Below are positions 1,604-31,462 of a DNA stretch of 64,000 bases, in pieces. The stretch spans positions 1-64,000 of IMG/VR virus record IMGVR_UViG_3300010396_000007; one strand, 5' to 3'. This stretch comes from a virus. Each line of letters starts with the position of its first letter. Position 1 is the first letter of the stretch. The position numbers and the translations under genes are program-made. Under the pieces are notes generated by a model, which saw only the letters and a program-made list of their open reading frames with translations, was not told where the DNA came from and did not search any database.

Positions 1604-2131
1604 ATGAAACATCTCACACAAGACGAACTTAAATTATTGCTGCAAGAGATACCTGATAAACGTCAGAAATTGATGTTTAAAGTTGGATTCTTTCATGCTC
1701 TACGTATTAGTGAGATAGTCAATCTTACAAAAGAGAACATAAGAGAGGGGTTTGTTACCATCCAGCGCTTGAAAGGGTCTGCAAAAACTATGCAGCCTTA
1801 TATTAAGCACCCTGACCCGGAGTTGGATGAATCCGTTGAGCTAGGAGAATTATCAAATACCCTCCAAAAAGGAGAAAAACTATTCCAGATTACAAGGAAT
1901 GGAGCTTACAAATTGATGCAACGAGCGGGAAAGCGAGCGGGTATTCCTTCGTATAAGTTACACCCACATTCGCTTAAACATGGATGTGCCATGCATTTGA
2001 TTCAAAAGAAGATAGGAATTGAGGAATTGAGAATTTTCTTAGGTCATAAATCGCTTAGTTCTACAGGGGAATACATCAAAGTTAGCGATGAGGTAGCAAG
2101 TAGGGCAGCGTCGGTAGCGTTTAATTCATAA
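1604..2131 (+). CDS. Minimal tyrosine recombinase (FimB/XerC-like catalytic domain only)
   Basis: LRISE, RLKG, HPHSLKH, LGHKSLSSTGEY. Confidence 0.88.
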   Translation: MKHLTQDELKLLLQEIPDKRQKLMFKVGFFHALRISEIVNLTKENIREGFVTIQRLKGSAKTMQPYIKHPDPELDESVELGELSNTLQKGEKLFQITRNGAYKLMQRAGKRAGIPSYKLHPHSLKHGCAMHLIQKKIGIEELRIFLGHKSLSSTGEYIKVSDEVASRAASVAFNS

Positions 2132-2200: not shown

Positions 2201-2977
2201 ATGCCAGATTTAATTGATTTAACCGGAAAGACTTTCGGGAAGCTTATTGTTCTTAGTCGAGCATCAAATAAGGGCAAGTATACTATGTGGAATGTAAAGT
2301 GTACTTGCCCTGCTGGAACTGAATTTACCGCAAGCTCTAGAAAACTAATAAGAGGAAAGTATCCTAGTTGTGGATGTGAGACACGAAGATTGCTTTCTGA
2401 AGCTCTTACTAATGATCTAACAGGTAAAACTTTCGGACGATTAACCGTCCTTGAAAAAGATGATACTGGAGGAAGATTACGAGCTTATTGGAAGGTGAAA
2501 TGTAGTTGTCCTCTAGGTACTATAAAAGTAGTATCTGGTAAACATTTGGTTGATGGGAAAGTTATCGGTTGTGGATGTATGCAAAAAGAGAGAAGGGCAA
2601 TTCAAGTAATTCCTTTCATGGCCTTGTATAATGCATTTTGTAGCTCTGCAAAACGTACAGGGCGCGAGGTATCACTCTCATTCGAGGACTTTTTAGAATT
2701 TACGAAACAAAAAGAATGCCACTATTGTGGTAGAATTCTTCATTGGGCAGTAAAACAGAAAATAGGAGAGCCTTTTGGACATAATTTGGATCGTAAAAAC
2801 AATGATTTAGGCTACTCAAAAGAAAATTGTGTAGCATGTTGTGGGGTATGCAATAAATCACGCGGGGACAGATTTACTTACGAAGAGTGGTTGGAGCATG
2901 GTGCCATTATCCGCGAAAGGCGTAAGAGGAAAGAGTCCGATGAAACAGCGAGCCGAGCGTTCGCAGGAGTGTTCTAA
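2201..2977 (+). CDS. Free-standing HNH-type homing endonuclease
   Basis: Two DLTGKTFG.L..C.C..GCGC repeats, then CHYCG...LDRKNNDLGYSKENCVACC..CN. Confidence 0.85.
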   Translation: MPDLIDLTGKTFGKLIVLSRASNKGKYTMWNVKCTCPAGTEFTASSRKLIRGKYPSCGCETRRLLSEALTNDLTGKTFGRLTVLEKDDTGGRLRAYWKVKCSCPLGTIKVVSGKHLVDGKVIGCGCMQKERRAIQVIPFMALYNAFCSSAKRTGREVSLSFEDFLEFTKQKECHYCGRILHWAVKQKIGEPFGHNLDRKNNDLGYSKENCVACCGVCNKSRGDRFTYEEWLEHGAIIRERRKRKESDETASRAFAGVF

Positions 2978-3570
2978 TGCAAGCCGTTAAGGTTAAATTC
3001 GAAACACTCGATTATGGTTGGATGTTCAAGATTACTAGTTTTCTTGAGCTAATGGATTACCATGAAAAGGTTAGGGCTAATCGGATTCAATCTGGATTTT
3101 CCAACCTTTTACGTTCACGAGAACTAGAGTCATTAACAGGAGTTTCCAAATTAGGCAACGAACATATGAGCCATCCTGATGCTTTTGGTATTTACTCAAA
3201 ATGCCTAGCCACGGATGGAACATGCTTCGACGCAGTTGCATCCTACGCAACAGATTTGTTGCGGGGAATGCTGCGAAGTCTTGAAGAAACTGGGGCTATT
3301 TATGTCAATAACAAAGGTGGGTACTTCTCGCATCATCCTAGATTAGAAGAATACGCAAGTAAAGAAATAACGGAATGGGTACTCCCCGGAGAAACAATTT
3401 CGATTACACAGTGGCCCGGTGGTACACATTGGTATGCATCTGTTGGTGGACGGTCCGTAACTAGGTACGGTGTGAATAAATGGAGCACCAAGACCATGGC
3501 GCAGACCAATGCTGAAAAATGGGCCGAAGAAAATGGAGTCGTTTTAGAAACCGTAAACGATACGCCTTGA
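2977..3570 (+). CDS. Hypothetical protein
   Basis: Translationally coupled ORF. Confidence 0.7.
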   Translation: MQAVKVKFETLDYGWMFKITSFLELMDYHEKVRANRIQSGFSNLLRSRELESLTGVSKLGNEHMSHPDAFGIYSKCLATDGTCFDAVASYATDLLRGMLRSLEETGAIYVNNKGGYFSHHPRLEEYASKEITEWVLPGETISITQWPGGTHWYASVGGRSVTRYGVNKWSTKTMAQTNAEKWAEENGVVLETVNDTP

Positions 3571-3595
3571 CAATTAATGGTACTTGTGGTACAAT
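3567..3595 (+). promoter_or_regulatory. Strong sigma70-type promoter, leaderless mRNA
   Basis: TTGACA-17-(TG)-TACAAT, then 6 nt to ATG 3602. Confidence 0.8.
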
Positions 3596-3601
3596 GGTTG
3601 T

Positions 3602-3874
3602 ATGACTGGACATTCTAAATGGAGTACAATCAAGCACAAGCCTCAACTGAAGGTAGCACCGAAGTACCCTCATTTGACAGAGACTAACGCTAATAAGGCA
3701 GGGGAAAGCGCATTCAAGATTCGCGTACCCTTATACAATAACCCATATACCGAGAACCCTTGCAAAAGTGCTTGGATTCGTGGATTTAAACGGGCCGAGC
3801 GTAACTTTAACGAAGGACTACGCTTCAGTGCTCGCGTCCTAGAGACAATAGCACTTGAGGAAGTTGAGGCATAA
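3602..3874 (+). CDS. Small protein with YebC-like N-terminus and RMF-like motif
   Basis: MTGHSKWSTIKHK, then AG..A...NPY.....AW.RGF. Confidence 0.7.
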   Translation: MTGHSKWSTIKHKPQLKVAPKYPHLTETNANKAGESAFKIRVPLYNNPYTENPCKSAWIRGFKRAERNFNEGLRFSARVLETIALEEVEA

Positions 3875-3876
3875 AC

Positions 3877-4035
3877 GTGACATGGTATCGTACAGGATAT
3901 GTCGATGGCTTGCATACTAATGCACAACGTTATTTGTTCCGAACCAAGAAGGCCGAACGTCTGTATAATCGTGGATATGCAAAAGGATTAGGGACATTAT
4001 ACTTCAGAATCCTTATGGAGCAAACAAGTGCCTAA
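3877..4035 (+). CDS. Small hypothetical protein (52 aa) with two Y..GY..G motifs
   Basis: GAGG SD plus GTG start; MTWYRTGYVDG...YNRGYAKG. Confidence 0.5.
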   Translation: MTWYRTGYVDGLHTNAQRYLFRTKKAERLYNRGYAKGLGTLYFRILMEQTSA

Positions 4036-4237
4036 GAAGAAAGCACCAAAGGTTTTCCTACCCCTGCCAGATGGGGTGAAGATTGGTGACAACATCGCGT
4101 ATTACCTTAACGGATGGCGAACAGGCCGGTTGGATAAAGTAGACGGTAGTTATGCTGGCATTCATGTCCTAGGTGGAGCAGTAGGTGCCCATCTCAAATG
4201 GGTAAGCATCGCGGACATAAAGAAGGTAGATGAGTGA
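4028..4237 (+). CDS. Hypothetical protein
   Basis: GGAG SD; coupled to next gene. Confidence 0.6.
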   Translation: MPKKKAPKVFLPLPDGVKIGDNIAYYLNGWRTGRLDKVDGSYAGIHVLGGAVGAHLKWVSIADIKKVDE

Positions 4238-5351
4238 AGTAGATAGTTTTATTACAAAGTTCTCAGAGCTAACGGAGGAGTATACCTTTTATGGAGGAGA
4301 AGTTACCCTCCGTTACGACCCAAAGGACCATGTATACTTATTAGTAACACCAGACGGATTAGAAAAGCAGGCAGGTGTAACTACAATTTGCCATATCATC
4401 GACAAGTCCAACGTATTAATTCCATGGGCGTGCAAGATGATGGCGCAGAAGTTGATGACTTTAATACCTATAAACTCTAGCGTGAATGGGCCGGATGCGG
4501 ATTTTATATCTCCTATTCAAGTGACGGATTTTGTAAAACTGGTACATGAAGCCAAATCTGCACATAAAGACAAGCTAGAGGACGCCGGGGAAGTTGGTCA
4601 CGCTGCTCATGCATGGATTGAAGCTTACATTAAAAAGGTTTTAGAGTACACAGATTATCGTGAGACTTTTGAACTACCTGAGATACCAAAAGATGACCGC
4701 GCTACAAGCTGTACGAAAGCCGGTCTATCTTGGATGCAGCGCCACAACGTCAGGTGGATTAGCACCGAGCGTAAGATTTATAGCCGTGAAGACAAGTATG
4801 CTGGTACGATGGATGGTCTATGTCGTGCTGATAGTTGCTCTGACCCGGCTTGCTGTAAGGTACAGTTCAAGGACAAGCTTACATTAGTTGACTGGAAGAC
4901 TAGTAACTATCTGTATATCGAGTATATCCTGCAAACTGCCGCATACAAAAAAGCGTATGAGGAGGAGACAGGGGAACACATTGAGGATATCTGGATTATC
5001 AGGTTGGGCAAGGAAGACGCCGAGTTCGATGCTTGGCATGTAGACCTAGAGACGGCAGAGTTGGGCTGGCAGGCATTCAAAGCGGCATTGGGACTCAGTA
5101 GAGCTATGGTACTCGTGGAAGAGGCTGTAGGGCAAATGAAGGACCATAGAAAACAGCTTGAAAAGGCCGCTAAAGCCGCAAAGAAAGCCGAGGACCTAAA
5201 GGTGAAATGCAAGAACGCTGACCGCTACAAGGGAATAAGAAAACCGACTTGTAACAACGGAAATCCTTGTGAGACCTGCCTTAAGCGGTATGCTGAAACA
5301 CAGGAAAGAATCGCAAAAGACTTGCAGAATTTAGTTGACAAACTAAAGTAG
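4230..5351 (+). CDS. PD-(D/E)XK exonuclease (Cas4/RecB-like)
   Basis: G...H, E, YAGTMDG, VDWKTS, Q..AY motifs; Cys-rich C-terminus. Confidence 0.8.
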   Translation: MSEVDSFITKFSELTEEYTFYGGEVTLRYDPKDHVYLLVTPDGLEKQAGVTTICHIIDKSNVLIPWACKMMAQKLMTLIPINSSVNGPDADFISPIQVTDFVKLVHEAKSAHKDKLEDAGEVGHAAHAWIEAYIKKVLEYTDYRETFELPEIPKDDRATSCTKAGLSWMQRHNVRWISTERKIYSREDKYAGTMDGLCRADSCSDPACCKVQFKDKLTLVDWKTSNYLYIEYILQTAAYKKAYEEETGEHIEDIWIIRLGKEDAEFDAWHVDLETAELGWQAFKAALGLSRAMVLVEEAVGQMKDHRKQLEKAAKAAKKAEDLKVKCKNADRYKGIRKPTCNNGNPCETCLKRYAETQERIAKDLQNLVDKLK

Positions 5352-5467: not shown

Positions 5468-6328
5468 ATGGCAAATGAACTAACTGTCCTGAATACCAAT
5501 ACGGCCATTCAGGAAGGTGGGCTAGGCGTAGATTTTGGTAGTAAACTCTTTGAGCTAAAGCCAGCTAACCTATTTATTGTACAGAACAACACGAACATTG
5601 AGGGAGCAGTTAAAGGAAACCTACGCATTGCAGAGACGGGTGACGAATATGATTCCATGTATGCGACACTTCTAGTCATGCCGACTGAGCAGCGTCAATA
5701 CCACATCGGTAACCCCGGAGAGCTTAATCGTACTCCTGAAAACCTAATGTGCTTCAGCACTGATATGAAGGTGCCACATGCAAAGGCACGCATTCCACAA
5801 GCAGTAAGCTGTGCAACATGCGCAAGAGCCGACTGGGAGCCATGGCGCGAGTACAAGGAAAAGAACAACGGGCAGACAAATAAGGCTCTGATTCCTCCGT
5901 GTGATGCTCATTATCGTGCATTGTTCATTGACGACCAGTACAAGTTGCCACTTCAAATGTTCATTCGTTCAAAGGCTAAAGAGCCATTTGAGCAGGGAAT
6001 GCAGAATCTAGCGCGCGTAATCGCTATGATGAAGGCAGAAGGAAAGAATCCTAACATCTTTGATGTGCGCTTTAAGATTAGCACAAAGGTTATTACAACA
6101 GGTAAATTCACGAGTTATGTACCTGTATTCAGTGACTTTAAGCCGCTGACAGAAGAACAGAGGGCAGCATTTGGTGCGGTGTACCTACAGTACATTAATC
6201 AGAAGAACCGTAAACAAGAAGCAGACGCGCAGGCAGAGGCCGAGGCAGAAGTTTCTGCAACTAATCAGTCCGTAGACGCATCTGTAGTAGAAGGTGAATA
6301 TGTCGGACAGGACGAAATCACTATCTAG
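5468..6328 (+). CDS. Probable ssDNA-binding/annealing protein
   Basis: Follows exonuclease; C..CxxC..C cluster; acidic C-terminal tail. Confidence 0.5.
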   Translation: MANELTVLNTNTAIQEGGLGVDFGSKLFELKPANLFIVQNNTNIEGAVKGNLRIAETGDEYDSMYATLLVMPTEQRQYHIGNPGELNRTPENLMCFSTDMKVPHAKARIPQAVSCATCARADWEPWREYKEKNNGQTNKALIPPCDAHYRALFIDDQYKLPLQMFIRSKAKEPFEQGMQNLARVIAMMKAEGKNPNIFDVRFKISTKVITTGKFTSYVPVFSDFKPLTEEQRAAFGAVYLQYINQKNRKQEADAQAEAEAEVSATNQSVDASVVEGEYVGQDEITI

Positions 6329-7385: not shown

Positions 7386-8423
7386 ATGAAGCTCAATGAG
7401 TACTTGGACGTAAAGAAACTGAGACAGCACATTAACGTGGGTCTAGTGACCGAACGTTTTCACGATACCCTCCCCCTTGCCATATACTGCTATGGGCGCA
7501 AGGCAGTATTTGACCAACACTGGGATGACGTAACAACTAAGACTCGTGGGCTAATTGTGGACCTTAACACAAATGATATTGTCGCACGTCCTTATGAAAA
7601 GTTCTTCGCCTATGAGACACCTGGGCGCGCGGAGACATACAATCGTAATGTCGAAACAACCGAGACATTGTTTGGACCGCCTATCATTACGGAGAAGGTA
7701 AACGGTTGCCTTGGTACTTTCTGGCGACATGGTATTCATTGGGGTATCGCCTCTAAGGGTTCGTTCCATTCTCCTCATGCGAAGTTTGCGACTGAGTGGC
7801 TGGAAAAGCACATTGAGGAGCACGGGAAGCTTATCTTCCCTGAAGGTTATACCCCAGTATTCGAAATCATTTGCCAAGAAGTACAACCGCATGTGATTAA
7901 ATATGAGCGTGATGGTTTAATACTTCTCAGTCTTATAAACAAAGAAACAGGTGACGAGTTAACTCAAGGTGAGGTAGACTACTACTCCGGTAAGAATTTA
8001 ATTGATACCGTTATGACTTATTCAAATGCTACTTTAAAAGTAGCGTTGGAAGCGGACAGAAATGATATGGAAGGCTTCGTAGCAACTTACCGCCGTCCCG
8101 GACAGTCACCGTTGAAGTTGAAAATTAAATTTCCAACGTTCCTCAAGAACCGCAAGATATTCTACGAAGAACAGAAGCGACTAGCAGTTCCTAAGAACAA
8201 CGATGAATATGTGAAAATCTTCAACGAAGCGTCCACGCTATTGCGGGATGCACTGGTTGCTTGCACCGAGCGCAAGGAGTTCGCAGAGTTTTTCCAGAAG
8301 TCTAATCCTAAGCTTACTCCGGTATGCTTTGCGATGATGGATGAGCGCGATTACAAGAAGGTCATTTGGAGGATAGTTGATAGAGAACAACGAGAAGGAA
8401 GCTCGCAAGAAAGAGCGGCTTAA
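7386..8423 (+). CDS. RNA ligase, T4 Rnl1 family
   Basis: TRGL, ARPYEKFF, motif I TEKVNG, FEII, EGFV, KIK. Confidence 0.88.
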   Translation: MKLNEYLDVKKLRQHINVGLVTERFHDTLPLAIYCYGRKAVFDQHWDDVTTKTRGLIVDLNTNDIVARPYEKFFAYETPGRAETYNRNVETTETLFGPPIITEKVNGCLGTFWRHGIHWGIASKGSFHSPHAKFATEWLEKHIEEHGKLIFPEGYTPVFEIICQEVQPHVIKYERDGLILLSLINKETGDELTQGEVDYYSGKNLIDTVMTYSNATLKVALEADRNDMEGFVATYRRPGQSPLKLKIKFPTFLKNRKIFYEEQKRLAVPKNNDEYVKIFNEASTLLRDALVACTERKEFAEFFQKSNPKLTPVCFAMMDERDYKKVIWRIVDREQREGSSQERAA

Positions 8424-8769
8424 GGAGAACTACATCTATCCTTGGGTTGGTGTAGACCTTGACAAGACATTAGCGGTATACGATACGTTCGTCAGTGAAA
8501 CACACATTGGCGAACCTATACCGGAAATGGTTGAACGTGTACAGAAGATGTTGATGGCTGGTACTATCGTTAAAATCTTCACTGCACGCGCGTCCGAGCC
8601 AAATCCACGGCAAAGACTAGCAAGTATCGCGGCAATCGAGGAGTGGTGTTTGAAGCATATTGGCAGAGTATTGCCGATTACCTGTATTAAAGATTATGGT
8701 TGTACTCGAATCTACGACGATAGAGCAATACAAGTAGAGGCAAATACTGGGAGAATAATTGGCGAGTAA
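8377..8769 (+). CDS. HAD-family phosphatase (Pnkp-like 3'-phosphatase)
   Basis: GVDLDKTLA, IFTAR, K, YDDRA; adjacent to Rnl1. Confidence 0.75.
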   Translation: MIENNEKEARKKERLKENYIYPWVGVDLDKTLAVYDTFVSETHIGEPIPEMVERVQKMLMAGTIVKIFTARASEPNPRQRLASIAAIEEWCLKHIGRVLPITCIKDYGCTRIYDDRAIQVEANTGRIIGE

Positions 8770-9286
8770 AGGTTTTGATTTATCAGGACAACGATTTGGG
8801 AATCTCCGCGTCGAGGATAGAACAAACGAACGCGGTCATGGCGGGGGTGTCATTTGGAACTGTACGTGTGATTGCGGAAATAAATGTAAAAAGCTAGCTG
8901 GAGATTTAAGAAGTGGTCATGTGAAATCTTGTGGATGTGCCAATGTAGAGCAACGAAGAAAAAGACCGTATGAGGCATTATACAATAATTTCATAAACGT
9001 GGGAGTAAAAAGAAAAGGACGAGTATTATCAAATACTCTAACCTACGAAGAGTTTTTAGAATTTATTCAAAATGGTCATTGCTTTTATTGTGGTGACAAA
9101 GTTGAATGGGCTGAATACAACATCGTAAGGAACAAAGCATCGTATAAACTTGATAGAAAAGATTCTAGCTTAGGTTATACAAAAGAAAATTGTGTAGTTT
9201 GTTGCCCAATGTGTAATCAAATGAAGTTAAAGCTTAGCTGTATAGATTTTATACGGCAAGTTCGAAAAATAGCAGAACATTTTTAG
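8759..9286 (+). CDS. HNH-type homing endonuclease
   Basis: DLSGQRFG..WNCTCDCG..SCGC; LDRKDSSLGYTKENCV. Confidence 0.85.
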   Translation: MASKGFDLSGQRFGNLRVEDRTNERGHGGGVIWNCTCDCGNKCKKLAGDLRSGHVKSCGCANVEQRRKRPYEALYNNFINVGVKRKGRVLSNTLTYEEFLEFIQNGHCFYCGDKVEWAEYNIVRNKASYKLDRKDSSLGYTKENCVVCCPMCNQMKLKLSCIDFIRQVRKIAEHF

Positions 9287-13615: not shown

Positions 13616-13858
13616 ATGGACACACAAAACATTAGGTCACGCGAGCCGCTGTCTAGCTTCATCCGGTATTGTGTGACCCATCCCGAAGAACGTTTCTGGC
13701 AAGCTCTAAAGAATTGGAGCGACTATCAGCGTATCAGTGCGGTAGAGATTTATCACGACCCGGAGCCTGTTCCAAACCCGTTAATGATATCGGGATACAG
13801 GGAAACACACATGGATACCTATAACTGGGAAGGAAGACGATATGACGAAAAAAGCTAA
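13616..13858 (+). CDS. Hypothetical protein
   Basis: HPEERFWQAL motif. Confidence 0.6.
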   Translation: MDTQNIRSREPLSSFIRYCVTHPEERFWQALKNWSDYQRISAVEIYHDPEPVPNPLMISGYRETHMDTYNWEGRRYDEKS

Positions 13859-15065
13859 CCACCAAGCGAACATAGTACGCATTTCTCAAATTGAGAAACA
13901 TCCGAACGCGGACACTCTTGAGATTATCAAGATTGGCGAATATCAAGTCGTGTCTAAAATCGGACAGTTCAAGGTGGGAGACTTGGGCGTTTATATTCAG
14001 CCTGATAGTGTTGTGCCTCAGACTGAGCCGTTTAGGTTTATCTGGGAGCCGCATCAAGTTCTAGCAGCCGATAGTCCTTATGCGTTTCATTCTCCTGTAC
14101 CGGAACGTAAGAGACGTATCACGGTTAGAAAATTCCGTAAAGAGTGGTCAGAGGGTTTGCTGCTTCCAATTAGTGATTTCTGGACTCTGGATCATTTCGA
14201 ATCTAATGGTGACCAACATGTAGCCGTTACTTGGGATGAAGCAGACCAAGAACCCGGTTATTTATATGAAGGGCAGGATATATCTGACCTTCTAGGGATT
14301 ACTCACTACGACCCGGACACTGAGAGTACCAAAGGAGAGAACAGCAATGCTCCAAAACTCAGCAAAAAGTACCCAAAGAGCCTTCGTGGATGGTACAACT
14401 TCCTTGTGCGTAAGATTAAGAACTTCTTTGGCAAGGACGACCTTGGGGGTTCAAACGACAATATCAGTTTGGGGATTCCTGTGTACGATGTAGACGCTCT
14501 AAAGAACTATCCCAAGACGTTCGAAGACGGGGAGCCGGTAATCGTTACTGAGAAGATTCACGGAAGTAATGCGCGCTTCTTGTTCCTTGAAGGGGTAATG
14601 TATGCAGGGTCACGTAAGCTATGGAAGTCACCAAATTCTACTTGCATTTTCCGCCGTGCTGTGAAAGAATTGAAGTGGATTGAGGAATGGTGCCGTGAGC
14701 ATGAAGGTTATGTATTGTGGGGCGAGCTTACCCCAACTCAAGGCGGCTTTGAATACGGTAGTAAACACGTCCAATTCTTCGTGTTTGATATCCGTACTCC
14801 CGATGGGAAATGGTTGGACAGGGAGCACGATGAAGCTGGATTACTCGCGCAGTTGATGGACTATTCAGTTCCTATTCTGTATCAGGGTCCATATGACCTT
14901 GAAGTAATCAAGAAGTTCGTAGACGGTCCTTCTATGGTCCCTCTGGCGAAGAACATTCGTGAAGGTGTGGTTATCAAGACTGCTACTGAGAAGCACAAGA
15001 CTGGTATCGGACGCTGCCAGATGAAGGTGGTATCGAATGCGTACCTCGAAAAAGATAATAAATAA
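13842..15065 (+). CDS. RNA ligase, DRB0094/Rnl2-like family
   Basis: HPNADTLE, SEGLLLP, TEKIHGSN, GE, FDI, EGVV. Confidence 0.88.
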   Translation: MTKKANHQANIVRISQIEKHPNADTLEIIKIGEYQVVSKIGQFKVGDLGVYIQPDSVVPQTEPFRFIWEPHQVLAADSPYAFHSPVPERKRRITVRKFRKEWSEGLLLPISDFWTLDHFESNGDQHVAVTWDEADQEPGYLYEGQDISDLLGITHYDPDTESTKGENSNAPKLSKKYPKSLRGWYNFLVRKIKNFFGKDDLGGSNDNISLGIPVYDVDALKNYPKTFEDGEPVIVTEKIHGSNARFLFLEGVMYAGSRKLWKSPNSTCIFRRAVKELKWIEEWCREHEGYVLWGELTPTQGGFEYGSKHVQFFVFDIRTPDGKWLDREHDEAGLLAQLMDYSVPILYQGPYDLEVIKKFVDGPSMVPLAKNIREGVVIKTATEKHKTGIGRCQMKVVSNAYLEKDNK

Positions 15066-24940: not shown

Positions 24941-25254
24941 GAGAAATGAAAACATTGCAACAGCCATCAAGTAAACGATTTATCTATACCCTCATGGGAT
25001 TTATAGTTTCTTGGTGTATCTTTGCTGGCGTTATCGGTTGTGAAGTGAGTGCTGTAGCTACAGTGAAAACGAATAATCCAAATATGAAAGTGGACTTCCT
25101 TTTCGAACATGAGGGCTGCCGCGTCTATAGATTTTCAGATAACGGCAACGATCACTACTACGCCAAGTGTGCAAATGGATCATTTACGTCTAGTGAAATA
25201 CCGCAAGGTAAGACAACTAGACCAGAAGAAATTCCGACAGGAGAAACAAATTGA
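24937..25254 (+). CDS. DUF4884-like membrane/lipoprotein
   Basis: LFEHEGCRVYRF.D.G..HYY. Confidence 0.6.
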   Translation: MREMKTLQQPSSKRFIYTLMGFIVSWCIFAGVIGCEVSAVATVKTNNPNMKVDFLFEHEGCRVYRFSDNGNDHYYAKCANGSFTSSEIPQGKTTRPEEIPTGETN

Positions 25255-26723
25255 ATATCTTTCCATTACACGCAACAGATTTCTACAAGACTGGACACTA
25301 TGCCCAGTACCCTGCTGGCAGTGAGTTTGTCTATGAGAACTTCACTTGTCGGTCATCCAAGTTCTTCGAACACGCTATCGGCTATGACAGCACAGTAGTG
25401 TTCTTTGGACTCCAATATGTCCTGAAGAACCTTCTTGTGGATATTTGGAACAAGAATTTCTTTGAAAAGCCTATTGAGGAAGTCGTTGCGAAGTATGAGC
25501 GCCGTATGACGGGAGCGCTTGGACCGGGACTGGTGACCATGGAACATATCCGTGAGTTGCACGCTCTAGGATACCTACCTATCCGCATCAAGGCTCTCCC
25601 TGAAGGTTCGCACGTCGATATCAGGGTGCCTCTCTTTACCATTGAGAACACCGTAGCAGGATTCGGATGGGTTGTGGGATACCTTGAAACGGCCATCTCA
25701 GCCGAGCTTTGGCAGACTATTACATCGGCCACTTCAGCCTATGAGTATCGCAGGATGCTGGACATGTATGCAGATGCTACGGGGGCCGATAAGAGCTTCG
25801 TGCCGTGGCAGGGACATGACTTCTCAGCGCGCGGTATGGTTGGAGTCATAGGTGGAGCAGCAAGCGGTATGGGTCATCTGACCAGTTTTACAGGCACAGA
25901 TACAGTCCTTGCATTGGACTTCCTTGAGGAATACTATCGTGGAGGAGAAACATTCCTTGGAGGGTCTGTGCCTGCTACGGAGCATTCCGTGATGTGCATG
26001 GGCACCGAAGACGAAGAGATTTACACATTCAGTCGCTTGATTACTGAGGTTTATCCAAGCGGAGTTGTCAGTATCGTATCTGATACGTGGGACTTCTGGA
26101 CAGTTATTACCAGCTTCACACGTCAATTGAAATCGGAAATCCTTGACCGTAAAGGTAAAGTAGTGTTCCGCCCCGACTCTGGGGACCCTGTGAAGATTAT
26201 TTGTGGGGACCCGGAAGCTGAGAAAGGCTCTCCTGCTTTCAAAGGAGCGGTTGAATGTCTCTGGGAAATCTTTGGTGGGACTATCACTAGCAAGGGTTAT
26301 AAGGTCCTTGACTCGCATGTTGGCCTTATCTACGGGGACAGCATCTCGCTTACTCGTGCTGATGCGATTCTTAGTGGATTGCAGGAGAAGGGCTTTGCCT
26401 CGTCTAACATCGTGTTTGGGATTGGCAGCTACACATATCAGCATGTGACCCGCGATACTCTTGGTACTGCTATCAAGGCGACTTGGGGGCAGGTAAACGG
26501 GAAGGGACGTGAGCTTTTCAAGAAGCCGAAGACTGACAACGGTATGAAGAATTCCGCTTGTGGTCTTCTGAGAATTGAGCGCGAGCATGGGCAGTTTGTA
26601 CTCTATGACCGTCAAACGCGCGAGCAGGAACAAAAAGGACTCTTGACAACTGTGTTCGAAGATGGTAAGATAGTTAAAGAATACAGCATCGTAGAGATTC
26701 GTGACACGGTTTTGAAAGGATAG
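25251..26723 (+). CDS. nadV: Nicotinamide phosphoribosyltransferase homologue (probable Namat of NARP1)
   Basis: TDFYKTGH, HDFSARG, PATEHSVM, SIVSDTWD, RPDSGDP, IYGDSI. Confidence 0.92.
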   Translation: MNIFPLHATDFYKTGHYAQYPAGSEFVYENFTCRSSKFFEHAIGYDSTVVFFGLQYVLKNLLVDIWNKNFFEKPIEEVVAKYERRMTGALGPGLVTMEHIRELHALGYLPIRIKALPEGSHVDIRVPLFTIENTVAGFGWVVGYLETAISAELWQTITSATSAYEYRRMLDMYADATGADKSFVPWQGHDFSARGMVGVIGGAASGMGHLTSFTGTDTVLALDFLEEYYRGGETFLGGSVPATEHSVMCMGTEDEEIYTFSRLITEVYPSGVVSIVSDTWDFWTVITSFTRQLKSEILDRKGKVVFRPDSGDPVKIICGDPEAEKGSPAFKGAVECLWEIFGGTITSKGYKVLDSHVGLIYGDSISLTRADAILSGLQEKGFASSNIVFGIGSYTYQHVTRDTLGTAIKATWGQVNGKGRELFKKPKTDNGMKNSACGLLRIEREHGQFVLYDRQTREQEQKGLLTTVFEDGKIVKEYSIVEIRDTVLKG

Positions 26724-26799
26724 GGCGCGTAACTCAGCGGACTAGAGTCACGAGCTTCTACCTCGTTGGCCGCAGGTTCGAATCCTGCCGTGCCCTCCA
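26723..26799 (+). tRNA. tRNA-Arg(TCT)
   Basis: Cloverleaf; loop CTTCTAC; A20; TTCGAAT T-loop; encoded CCA. Confidence 0.92.
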
Positions 26800-30833: not shown

Positions 30834-30909
30834 TGGAGCCTGCGGAGGGAATCGAACCCCCGACATTCTGTTTACAAAACAGATGCTCTACCAACTGAGC
30901 TACACAGGC
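30834..30909 (-). tRNA. tRNA-Thr(TGT)
   Basis: Canonical cloverleaf; CCA end. Confidence 0.93.
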
Positions 30910-30988
30910 CGGTTTTAGGTTTTTTACAAGGTTTATACCTTTATCCTTGATTAGTCACTCCTAAAAATTGATGAGAATGATCCTAATA

Positions 30989-31063
30989 TGGAGCGGAATA
31001 CCCGACTTGAACGGGTGCCTTTGGTTTGGAAGACCACGATGCTACCACTAACACCAATCCCGC
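30989..31063 (-). tRNA. tRNA-Gly(TCC)
   Basis: Loop CTTCCAA; U73-CCA. Confidence 0.88.
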
Positions 31064-31071
31064 TTTAAATT

Positions 31072-31145
31072 TGGCACCGGGGCAGAGATTCGAACTCCAA
31101 TAAGCAGCTTCAAAGACTGCCGTCCTTCCATTGAACGAACCCGGT
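31072..31145 (-). tRNA. tRNA-Gln(TTG)
   Basis: Loop CTTTGAA; TTCGAAT; GCCA end. Confidence 0.85.
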
Positions 31146-31146
31146 A

Positions 31147-31299
31147 TTATGTACAGTCTTCCCTGTACTTTCTACAGGCAAGACATTTACAATCATTCTC
31201 GTGTTGGGCGCGATACAAATGACAAATGATAAGCTTTTGACTATTAAAAATAGTCGCAATTATTGCCCATATGAAGAATATAACTATAAAGAATCCCAT
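31147..31299 (-). CDS. Small membrane peptide (50 aa) inside the tRNA cluster
   Basis: AAGGA SD; hydrophobic N-half, Cys-rich C-half. Confidence 0.5.
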   Translation of the reverse strand: MGFFIVIFFIWAIIATIFNSQKLIICHLYRAQHENDCKCLACRKYREDCT

Positions 31300-31310
31300 T
31301 ATTTCCTTTC

Positions 31311-31384
31311 TGGCACCCAGTCATGGATTTGCACCACGATTCACGGATTCAGAATCCGCTGTCCTGCTGTTGAACGAACTAGGT
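31311..31384 (-). tRNA. tRNA-Gln(CTG), atypical T-loop
   Basis: Loop TTCTGAA; T-loop TGCAAAT. Confidence 0.82.
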
Positions 31385-31386
31385 AT

Positions 31387-31462
31387 TGGCGGTTCCAGCG
31401 GGATTCGAACCCGCACCTTTCACCTTGACAAGATGGCATCCTAGCCGTTAGACCATGAAACC
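31387..31462 (-). tRNA. tRNA-Asp(GTC)
   Basis: Loop TTGTCAA; G73-CCA. Confidence 0.9.

Follow-up and report, generated by a model that had tools for sequence, protein, structure and literature searches.

Ribosome modulation factor (RMF; PF04957; PDB 4V8G, 6H4N, 9IOT and 2JRM) is a small, basic protein that folds as a helix-loop-helix and carries the pattern G..A...[CN]PY...[RK]..W..G[WF][RK].A. On the ribosome, it lies in the uS2/uS7/uS9/bS21 pocket at the anti-Shine-Dalgarno site (bioRxiv 10.1101/2025.10.07.680626). Here, we consider a phage gene whose product resembles RMF. It comes from IMG/VR virus record IMGVR_UViG_3300010396_000007 (98,677 bp), of which positions 1 to 64,000 are the stretch that was analysed, called "the window" below. 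The gene occupies positions 3602-3874 of the plus strand, including its stop codon TAA at 3872-3874, and encodes a protein of 90 amino acids, P0001, whose translation starts MTGHSKWSTIKHK and also contains NPYTENPCKSAWIRGF. To the layout of RMF, P0001 adds a basic N-terminal tail of 26 amino acids and, at the other end, a helix of 20 amino acids with an acidic end; it is encoded by a phage, and is known here from its sequence and a structure model.

The best-scoring profiles for P0001 are those of CrpP (NF033696) and of Rmf_CrpP (NF041886). The CrpP and P0001 families are both found on mobile elements, but P0001 has different extensions and a different genomic setting. The claim that CrpP modifies ciprofloxacin is reportedly disputed. 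Small phage proteins of the same fold are already catalogued as Rmf_like_phage (NF041887), none of them characterised; the original prediction, which had been made from the sequence of the window alone, was therefore too strong in holding that P0001 has no described equivalent. What sets the P0001 family apart from those phage proteins is a tail at each end of the protein, together with a leaderless promoter that is conserved.

Two further systems invite comparison. The YebC/PmpR/TACO1 proteins (PRK00110; PF20772 and PF01709) have a three-domain fold of about 240 amino acids, none of which is present in P0001, whose first residues nevertheless look like theirs. In phage lambda, the promoter PRM sets the start of the cI transcript at the A of its AUG, so that no Shine-Dalgarno sequence precedes the gene; the P0001 gene is arranged alike. 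Unlike cI, it opens a block of several genes, the later of which are led by Shine-Dalgarno sequences, and its transcription start is a predicted one.

The fold itself is not new, of course. What is new is a subfamily that is basic, shows strong conservation and carries a tail at either end, along with what appears to be a conserved leaderless promoter and a YebC-like motif in one branch. The explanation that we prefer, to which we give a probability of about 40%, is that P0001 is a basic Rmf/CrpP-fold protein that binds RNA or the ribosome, and that it is made first, from a leaderless transcript of the host polymerase. Here, the host RNA polymerase would read the gene from a near-consensus promoter, giving a transcript that begins at or near its own AUG. 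The product consists of a basic tail that is predicted to be disordered (residues 1-26), a helix-loop-helix core (27-70), and a long helix with the acidic end EEVEA. It would bind structured RNA, the preferred candidate being the small ribosomal subunit, as with RMF; the basic tail would add affinity, and the protein would modulate translation early in infection. The leaderless message, in turn, would free the synthesis of P0001 from any need for the anti-Shine-Dalgarno site, which RMF covers.

The Rmf/CrpP-fold core

By comparison with its relatives, P0001 is the product of a real gene. Among 5.8 billion proteins, searched through a word index, 19 homologues with 52-83% identity were found, and HMMER, run exhaustively against 1.84 billion representatives, gave 18 matches with E<=0.001. 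Profile searching enlarges the family to about 45 protein clusters, and the codons beneath the conserved residues vary synonymously. It is this combination of homologues and synonymous variation that makes the gene real. One apparent member, P0028 (1721 amino acids, with seven matched stretches), is an unrelated tandem-repeat protein whose match to the family is spurious.

All members of the family are unnamed or "hypothetical," and come from metagenomes or from phage contigs of about 90-99 kb. Related DNA was found at 8 loci in IMG/VR, on contigs mostly of 89-99 kb, and at 17 loci from JGI metagenomes. No relative appeared among the 185,579 species genomes scanned, and the INPHARED phages gave neither a DNA match nor a tblastn match for the gene. 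Thus, the family belongs to a single clade of uncultivated phages. General resources added little: nothing in PHROGs was better than E 0.16, the ESM Atlas held no usable match, and a profile search of the PDB by sequence returned only chance matches (E>0.1).

The core covers residues 27-70 (3680-3811, plus strand), with a helix at 27-39, a loop that holds NPY, and the start of a second helix at 54-89. Its signature is G34..A37...N47-P48-Y49...W58..G61-F62-K63.A65. Taken alone, P0001 matches CrpP_fam (NF033696) over residues 29-66 with E 6.3e-6 (26.2 bits; curated cut-off 55) and Rmf_CrpP_fam (NF041886) with E 1.4e-3 (18 bits; cut-off 28). Its matches to Rmf_like_phage (NF041887; E 0.057, 12.9 bits, cut-off 40) and to RMF itself (PF04957; residues 46-66, E 0.056, 13.9 bits, cut-off 27.9) are weaker. 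The whole family makes a firmer case, since 33 of the 35 aligned members match CrpP_fam (best E 1.3e-7), 29 match Rmf_CrpP_fam, and 23 match Rmf_like_phage, the last weakly; the model PRK14563 weakly matches four. When the entire phage genome is searched in six frames with CrpP_fam, the sole match lies at 3686-3799 (E 7.8e-7), and RMF proper (PF04957 and NF011162) finds no six-frame match in that genome at E<=1. P0001 stays below every curated cut-off. It stands in a new and divergent subfamily, one that is neither RMF nor CrpP nor the catalogued phage family.

Profile comparison and structure point the same way. With hhalign, the family profile places NPY...W..GF.RA on CPY...WLGGWREA of Escherichia coli RMF (b0953; P 3.8e-4). 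An AlphaFold model built from the 35-row alignment has a mean predicted local distance difference test score (pLDDT) of 83, which exceeds 90 over residues ~30-80, and shows helices at 27-39 and 54-89. Foldseek, run with this model against 350,542 PDB chains, ranks RMF first and second, as 9iot_y (root-mean-square deviation, rmsd, of 0.9 A over 42 columns; probability 0.98) and 2jrm, and 6h4n_v is also among its matches. VIA-align, run against 48,161 representatives, has as its best match 4v8g_AV, which is RMF bound to the 70S ribosome (Z 6.2; rmsd 2.7 A; 52 of 53 residues).

As the domain is tiny, each of these scores is modest by itself. It is because the sequence profiles and two independent structural aligners agree that we regard residues 27-70 as very probably a divergent domain of the Rmf/CrpP fold. 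The original prediction had read the part of the protein behind its N-terminus as RMF-like, and family-wide profiles, hhalign and structure search all sustain that reading; an RMF-like fold is what both structure searches return at the top of their lists.

The promoter and the predicted leaderless message

A promoter of the sigma-70 type stands immediately ahead of the gene (3567-3595, plus strand). Its -35 hexamer, TTGACA, occupies 3567-3572 and its -10 hexamer, TACAAT, occupies 3590-3595; the 17-nucleotide spacer between them ends in TGG, with the TG of an extended -10 element at 3587-3588. The -35 hexamer shares bases with the stop codon TGA (3568-3570) of an upstream open reading frame (ORF) of 197 amino acids. 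Between the -10 hexamer and ATG 3602 lie only six nucleotides, GGTTGT, and no Shine-Dalgarno sequence. The start codon (3602-3604) thus begins at the seventh base past the -10 hexamer, which is also where transcription is predicted to start.

Direct reading of the sequence bears out the promoter of the original prediction, including its distance of six nucleotides from the ATG. Over the first 12 kb, no other site comes as close to the consensus (11 of 12 positions, plus TG). Promoter-like sites as a class are, however, not above chance there, with 18 found against 22 expected from shuffled sequence. Therefore, weight must be placed on conservation in relatives, where an equivalent -35/17/-10 layout precedes the gene, rather than on the consensus scan. 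A promoter with the same hexamers and spacing, TTGACA-17-TACAAT, followed by GGTT as at 3567, occurs outside the window, at 78702.

Sixteen distinct loci were compared, taking at each the best -35/-10 pair upstream of the homologous gene. The gap between the -10 hexamer and the ATG is 6 nucleotides at nine loci (the window, L010, L001, L002, L006, L007, L017, L022 and L024), 7 at two (L012 and L020, the second of these cut at the end of its contig so that only the -10 hexamer is visible), 8 at L014, and 9 at L018. In the L003 group the gap is 2 nucleotides, and a second ATG, this one with a Shine-Dalgarno sequence, follows 21 nucleotides downstream; two loci (L008 and L021) have an ordinary start led by a Shine-Dalgarno sequence. 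Thus, the -10 hexamer ends 6-8 nucleotides ahead of the ATG in 12 of the 16.

Sequence drifts within this fixed geometry. The hexamers vary between loci (TACAAT, TATAAT, TATACT, TACTAT, CACACT), and so do the gap sequences, none of which holds a Shine-Dalgarno sequence. Because the geometry is preserved while the sequence drifts, the transcript probably starts at the AUG or within one or two bases of it, which would make the message leaderless, its 5' end being a predicted one. In this respect, the original prediction proves to describe a feature conserved across divergent relatives and not a peculiarity of one phage.

All of this presumes, of course, that translation begins where we place it. 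In relative L010, an in-frame TAA immediately precedes the homologous ATG, and in the window the alternative start TTG 3584 falls within the promoter spacer. For these reasons ATG 3602 is, on comparative grounds, the true start.

A promoter of host-type consensus implies recognition by the unmodified polymerase of the host, and from this it is plausible that the P0001 gene is expressed early. The largest ORF of the phage genome has at most 1,024 amino acids, which argues against a giant virion polymerase of the N4 type, smaller phage polymerases not having been searched for.

Charge, tails and target

The case for RNA or the ribosome as the target of P0001 begins with charge. The family is uniformly basic, with a median net charge of +7 and an isoelectric point of about 10, and E. 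coli RMF has +7 and 10.9. A charge equal to that of E. coli RMF makes it plausible that the family binds ribosomes or RNA. The charge is split between the core (median +4) and the tail (median +5). In P0001, the N-terminal tail (residues 1-26; 3602-3679, plus strand) has a net charge of +5 and is predicted to be disordered (pLDDT 56-61). An outlying subfamily that has no such tail (P0032, P0033, P0035, P0045 and P0046) has instead a tail at the C-terminus, with a charge of +9 to +15.

At the other end, helix 2 extends beyond the core (3812-3871, plus strand) and finishes with the acidic EEVEA (residues 86-90; 3857-3871). The codons of EEVEA double as a GAGG-type ribosome-binding site for the next gene, and one might suppose that the peptide is a mere by-product of that site. 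As a sole cause this was rejected, since the residues stay constant while third codon positions vary (GAG/GAA, GTT/GTA/GTG/GTC, GCA/GCG). The tail is therefore selected as protein as well.

Several considerations weigh against a ribosomal role. Every family-model score of P0001 is below its curated cut-off, the Z of 6.2 from structure search is modest for a small helical protein, and the closest profile is that of CrpP, whose function is unsettled. The structural register, in which residue i of RMF is residue i+18 of P0001, shows that scaffold positions are held in common (G16/G34, A19/A37, P30/P48, Y31/Y49, W40/W58, G43/G61, W44/F62, A47/A65). Of seven basic core positions of RMF, however, only two are matched by a basic residue in P0001 (R37/K55 and R45/K63), a comparison made over the aligned core. 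Helix 1 of P0001 is neutral to acidic, unlike that of RMF.

The setting of the gene raises further difficulties. Its conserved neighbours are DNA enzymes (among them an exonuclease), not translation genes. RMF proper is confined to certain Gammaproteobacteria (bioRxiv 10.1101/2025.10.07.680626), to which the host of this phage need not belong. The main objection is that the later genes of the block use Shine-Dalgarno sites, so that a strong general block of the anti-Shine-Dalgarno site would hurt the phage as well.

Another view is that P0001 is a diversified Rmf/CrpP-fold module of mobile elements, directed at some other host target in take-over or counter-defence and using the fold as a scaffold. 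In its favour, the best profile is that of a family associated with integrative and conjugative elements, members of the P0001 family come solely from phage and metagenome contigs, and the basic core positions of RMF are mostly not kept. Among the 19 close members, however, 14 core positions are invariant, as are E86 and E87 in the tail, and such strong conservation argues for a fixed target rather than one that evolves fast. We consider this view unlikely.

Binding to RNA or the ribosome stays the preferred explanation. To our knowledge, no RMF-fold phage protein has a demonstrated function, though phages and conjugative elements often encode the fold. The P0001 family is an unusually good candidate with which to test whether such proteins act on the ribosome: its charge equals that of RMF, conservation of the core is strong, its gene is probably the first to be expressed from a host-polymerase transcript, its message would be independent of Shine-Dalgarno recognition, and it comes from a phage equipped with tRNAs, a transfer-messenger RNA (tmRNA) and RNA ligases. 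If P0001 does bind the 30S subunit, it would represent a new route by which a phage steers host translation, and a natural case of leaderless translation serving as a regulatory bypass.

The tail also holds the YebC-like feature of the original prediction. The motif GHSKWSTIKHK (residues 3-13; 3608-3640) resembles the N-terminus of YebC, and against the YebC consensus P0001 has 9 identities in 13. Against the YebC model PRK00110, residues 1-14 fall on profile positions 1-14 with 12.9 bits. The register is exact; the E of 0.064, by itself, lacks significance when a single protein is compared with 18,950 models. P0001 is the only one of the 35 members to reach this model at E<=0.1, and the Pfam model of the YebC N-terminus (TACO1_YebC_N, PF20772), which matches 11 of 14 control genomes, has no match in the phage genome at E<=1.

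Nor do the homologues generally keep the motif. The form H.[KRP]W..[IVT][KR] is found in 10 of 55 distinct members and W..I[KR/E][HK] in 5 more, so that the tryptophan motif is missing from 40; a looser form, aromatic-x-x-[LI]-basic, occurs in 9, and 30 have no form of it at all, most of these starting MKN... and not with anything like GHSKW. Members with the tryptophan are confined to one poorly resolved clade of 35 rows, spread over several of its subclades, and the core tree (66 columns) is too poorly resolved to tell whether the motif arose once or several times.

Where it is present, the W-x-x-I-[KR]-H-[KR] core is under selection at the protein level, since its isoleucine, lysine and arginine codons vary synonymously between loci. 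A similar motif recurs in the distant members P0021, P0030 (HTKWQTVRNRK) and P0031, and once, in P0033, at the C-terminus (HHKWKTVRNR). The tryptophan motif seems to be a real and possibly portable basic-aromatic element of the family. In our reading, the YebC look of P0001 is the extension of this motif to GHSKW in the branch to which the window belongs. Homology to YebC is not demonstrable, and functional mimicry of YebC by the tail is speculative.

The original prediction went further, proposing that P0001 is a chimera of YebC and RMF. Of its YebC half, a likeness of 13 residues in exact register stands; a wider likeness does not, since most of the family lacks the motif and a single member approaches the YebC model. 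Homologues without GHSKW had been named with the original prediction as something that would refute it, and that is largely what the family shows. A functional chimera that mimics both factors on the ribosome would explain why the register is exact, why the W..I[KR]H[KR] core stays constant while its codons change synonymously, and why similar motifs recur in distant members, even at the opposite terminus. In YebC, however, the N-terminal motif opens a folded helical domain, and that domain is not present in P0001.

Geometry is a further obstacle. TACO1 occupies the A site and the EF-Tu site, contacting A-site tRNA, H43/44, H89, H95, uS12 and bL12 (PMC12996406), and YebC cross-links at helix 89 (PMC12234827, PMC13602936); these three papers do not state the contacts of the N-terminal motif. 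The TACO1 and RMF sites are far apart, so that one protein of 90 amino acids would hardly occupy both, and a tail of 26 residues could hardly bridge the TACO1 site and the RMF pocket. Dual mimicry is, for these reasons, very improbable. A literature search turned up nothing useful on GHSKW, on phage RMF-like factors or on the function of CrpP.

A bolder version of the preferred explanation can be framed, and must be called doubtful. Here, a clade of soil phages would make a basic RMF-fold protein from a leaderless message, one that can do without anti-Shine-Dalgarno pairing. The protein would sit on the small subunit of the host ribosome, where it re-programmes initiation or displaces or mimics hibernation factors; the hosts themselves may lack RMF. 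In this version, the tail with W..I[KR]H[KR] is a portable RNA-binding motif, convergent with that of YebC/TACO1.

The conserved gene block and the phage genome

A tblastn search with the neighbours of P0001 in the window shows that gene order is fixed across loci. A gene for 135 amino acids, a recombinase of 175 amino acids and a variable insert precede the RMF-like gene; a gene for 69 amino acids, a Cas4-like exonuclease, a gene for 286 amino acids and an RNA ligase follow it. By this synteny, the RMF-like gene is the head of a conserved block.

The 69-amino-acid protein (4028-4237, plus strand) is predicted, from its alignment, structure model and fold matches, to combine a basic tail with a beta-barrel of the Tudor/SH3/KOW type. 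Its invariant residues are P12, P14, G16, Y25, Y26, G29, W30 and G33. In many relatives its gene directly follows the RMF-like gene, its start often overlapping or abutting the RMF-like stop. Prediction of a complex between this protein and P0001 gave no answer (score 0.00), which counts neither way. Next comes the exonuclease, of the Cas4/PD-(D/E)XK type (4230-5351, plus strand; PHROG 298, E 1.6e-28), whose place is also supported by synteny. The 286-amino-acid gene (5468-6328, plus strand) follows the exonuclease, and its product, which has 47-91% identity in relatives, matches nothing in Pfam or PHROG. A CxxC...C cluster is present in it, and the protein may be a partner of the exonuclease.

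This neighbourhood suggests a serious rival to a ribosomal role, namely that P0001 is a nucleic-acid-binding accessory or regulator of a recombination/replication module. It would act on DNA or on proteins of the module, and not on ribosomes, with EEVEA as a docking peptide. The order RMF-like gene, 69-amino-acid gene, exonuclease, 286-amino-acid gene is kept in practically all loci that extend far enough to reveal it. The overlap of stop and start between the first two genes, together with the Shine-Dalgarno sequence held by the EEVEA codons, suggests coupled expression. The retention of EEVEA at the protein level would suit a docking role, and basic charge fits DNA as well as RNA.

Against this, gene order in a compact early region of a phage is weak evidence of common function, and no DNA-binding role is known for any protein of the Rmf/CrpP fold. 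We hold the rival to be possible, though improbable. Were P0001 nevertheless found to bind DNA or the neighbouring nuclease, this would be the first non-ribosomal function for the fold.

For the preferred explanation, action on RNA or the ribosome, the rest of the genome provides a setting. The phage carries 16 tRNAs, a permuted tmRNA, two RNA ligases, a nicotinamide phosphoribosyltransferase (NAMPT), UvsX and a primase-helicase. The tRNAs, the tmRNA and the two ligases together imply a phage that invests in translation. The ends of the record repeat over only 30 nucleotides, so that a position "near the left end" has no meaning for the P0001 gene.

The tmRNA is of the permuted, two-piece kind and lies outside the window at 79259-79637. 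It matches Rfam RF04321 with 72.8 bits, in a database where permuted tmRNAs are pooled in a single family, and ARAGORN gives it a tag peptide of 26 residues that ends ELVMA. Some tRNAs also lie outside the window, at 79760-82006; inside it are a tRNA-Arg at 26723-26799 and five tRNAs at 30834-31462 on the minus strand. The two RNA ligases and the NAMPT fall in one strand block (7386-8423, 13842-15065 and 25251-26723, all on the plus strand), and likely counter host defences by repairing tRNA and salvaging NAD.

Other genes near P0001 are less constant. A 258-amino-acid HNH-like gene, the 197-amino-acid gene upstream of the promoter and a 52-amino-acid ORF (3877-4035) are not at these positions in relatives, and for this reason are taken as insertions peculiar to this phage. 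The HNH-like gene (2201-2977) and the 197-amino-acid ORF (2977-3570) together look like a mobile insertion just 5' of the promoter. The HNH-like gene is Cys-rich and has a paralog of the same kind at 8759-9286, both on the plus strand; the two products start ..L[TS]G[KQ][TR]FG.L.V.. and end in C..C...C..C motifs.

The 52-amino-acid ORF, P0002, sits on the plus strand between the RMF-like and 69-amino-acid genes, with a GTG start, GAGG 8 nucleotides upstream, and two R.GY..GL-like repeats. By eye these repeats (RGY..GL) suggest RMF; the protein was rejected as a relative, having no similarity to RMF or to the P0001 family.

At the upstream edge of the block, the 175-amino-acid recombinase (1604-2131, plus strand) consists of the catalytic domain of a tyrosine recombinase only (Pfam Phage_integrase, E 8e-24), and is present with 54-63% identity in all relatives of what is seemingly a lytic phage. 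Further upstream, at 25-651 on the plus strand, a pentapeptide-repeat region is fused to DUF5758 (E 1e-27), an arrangement that is also found in relative L026.

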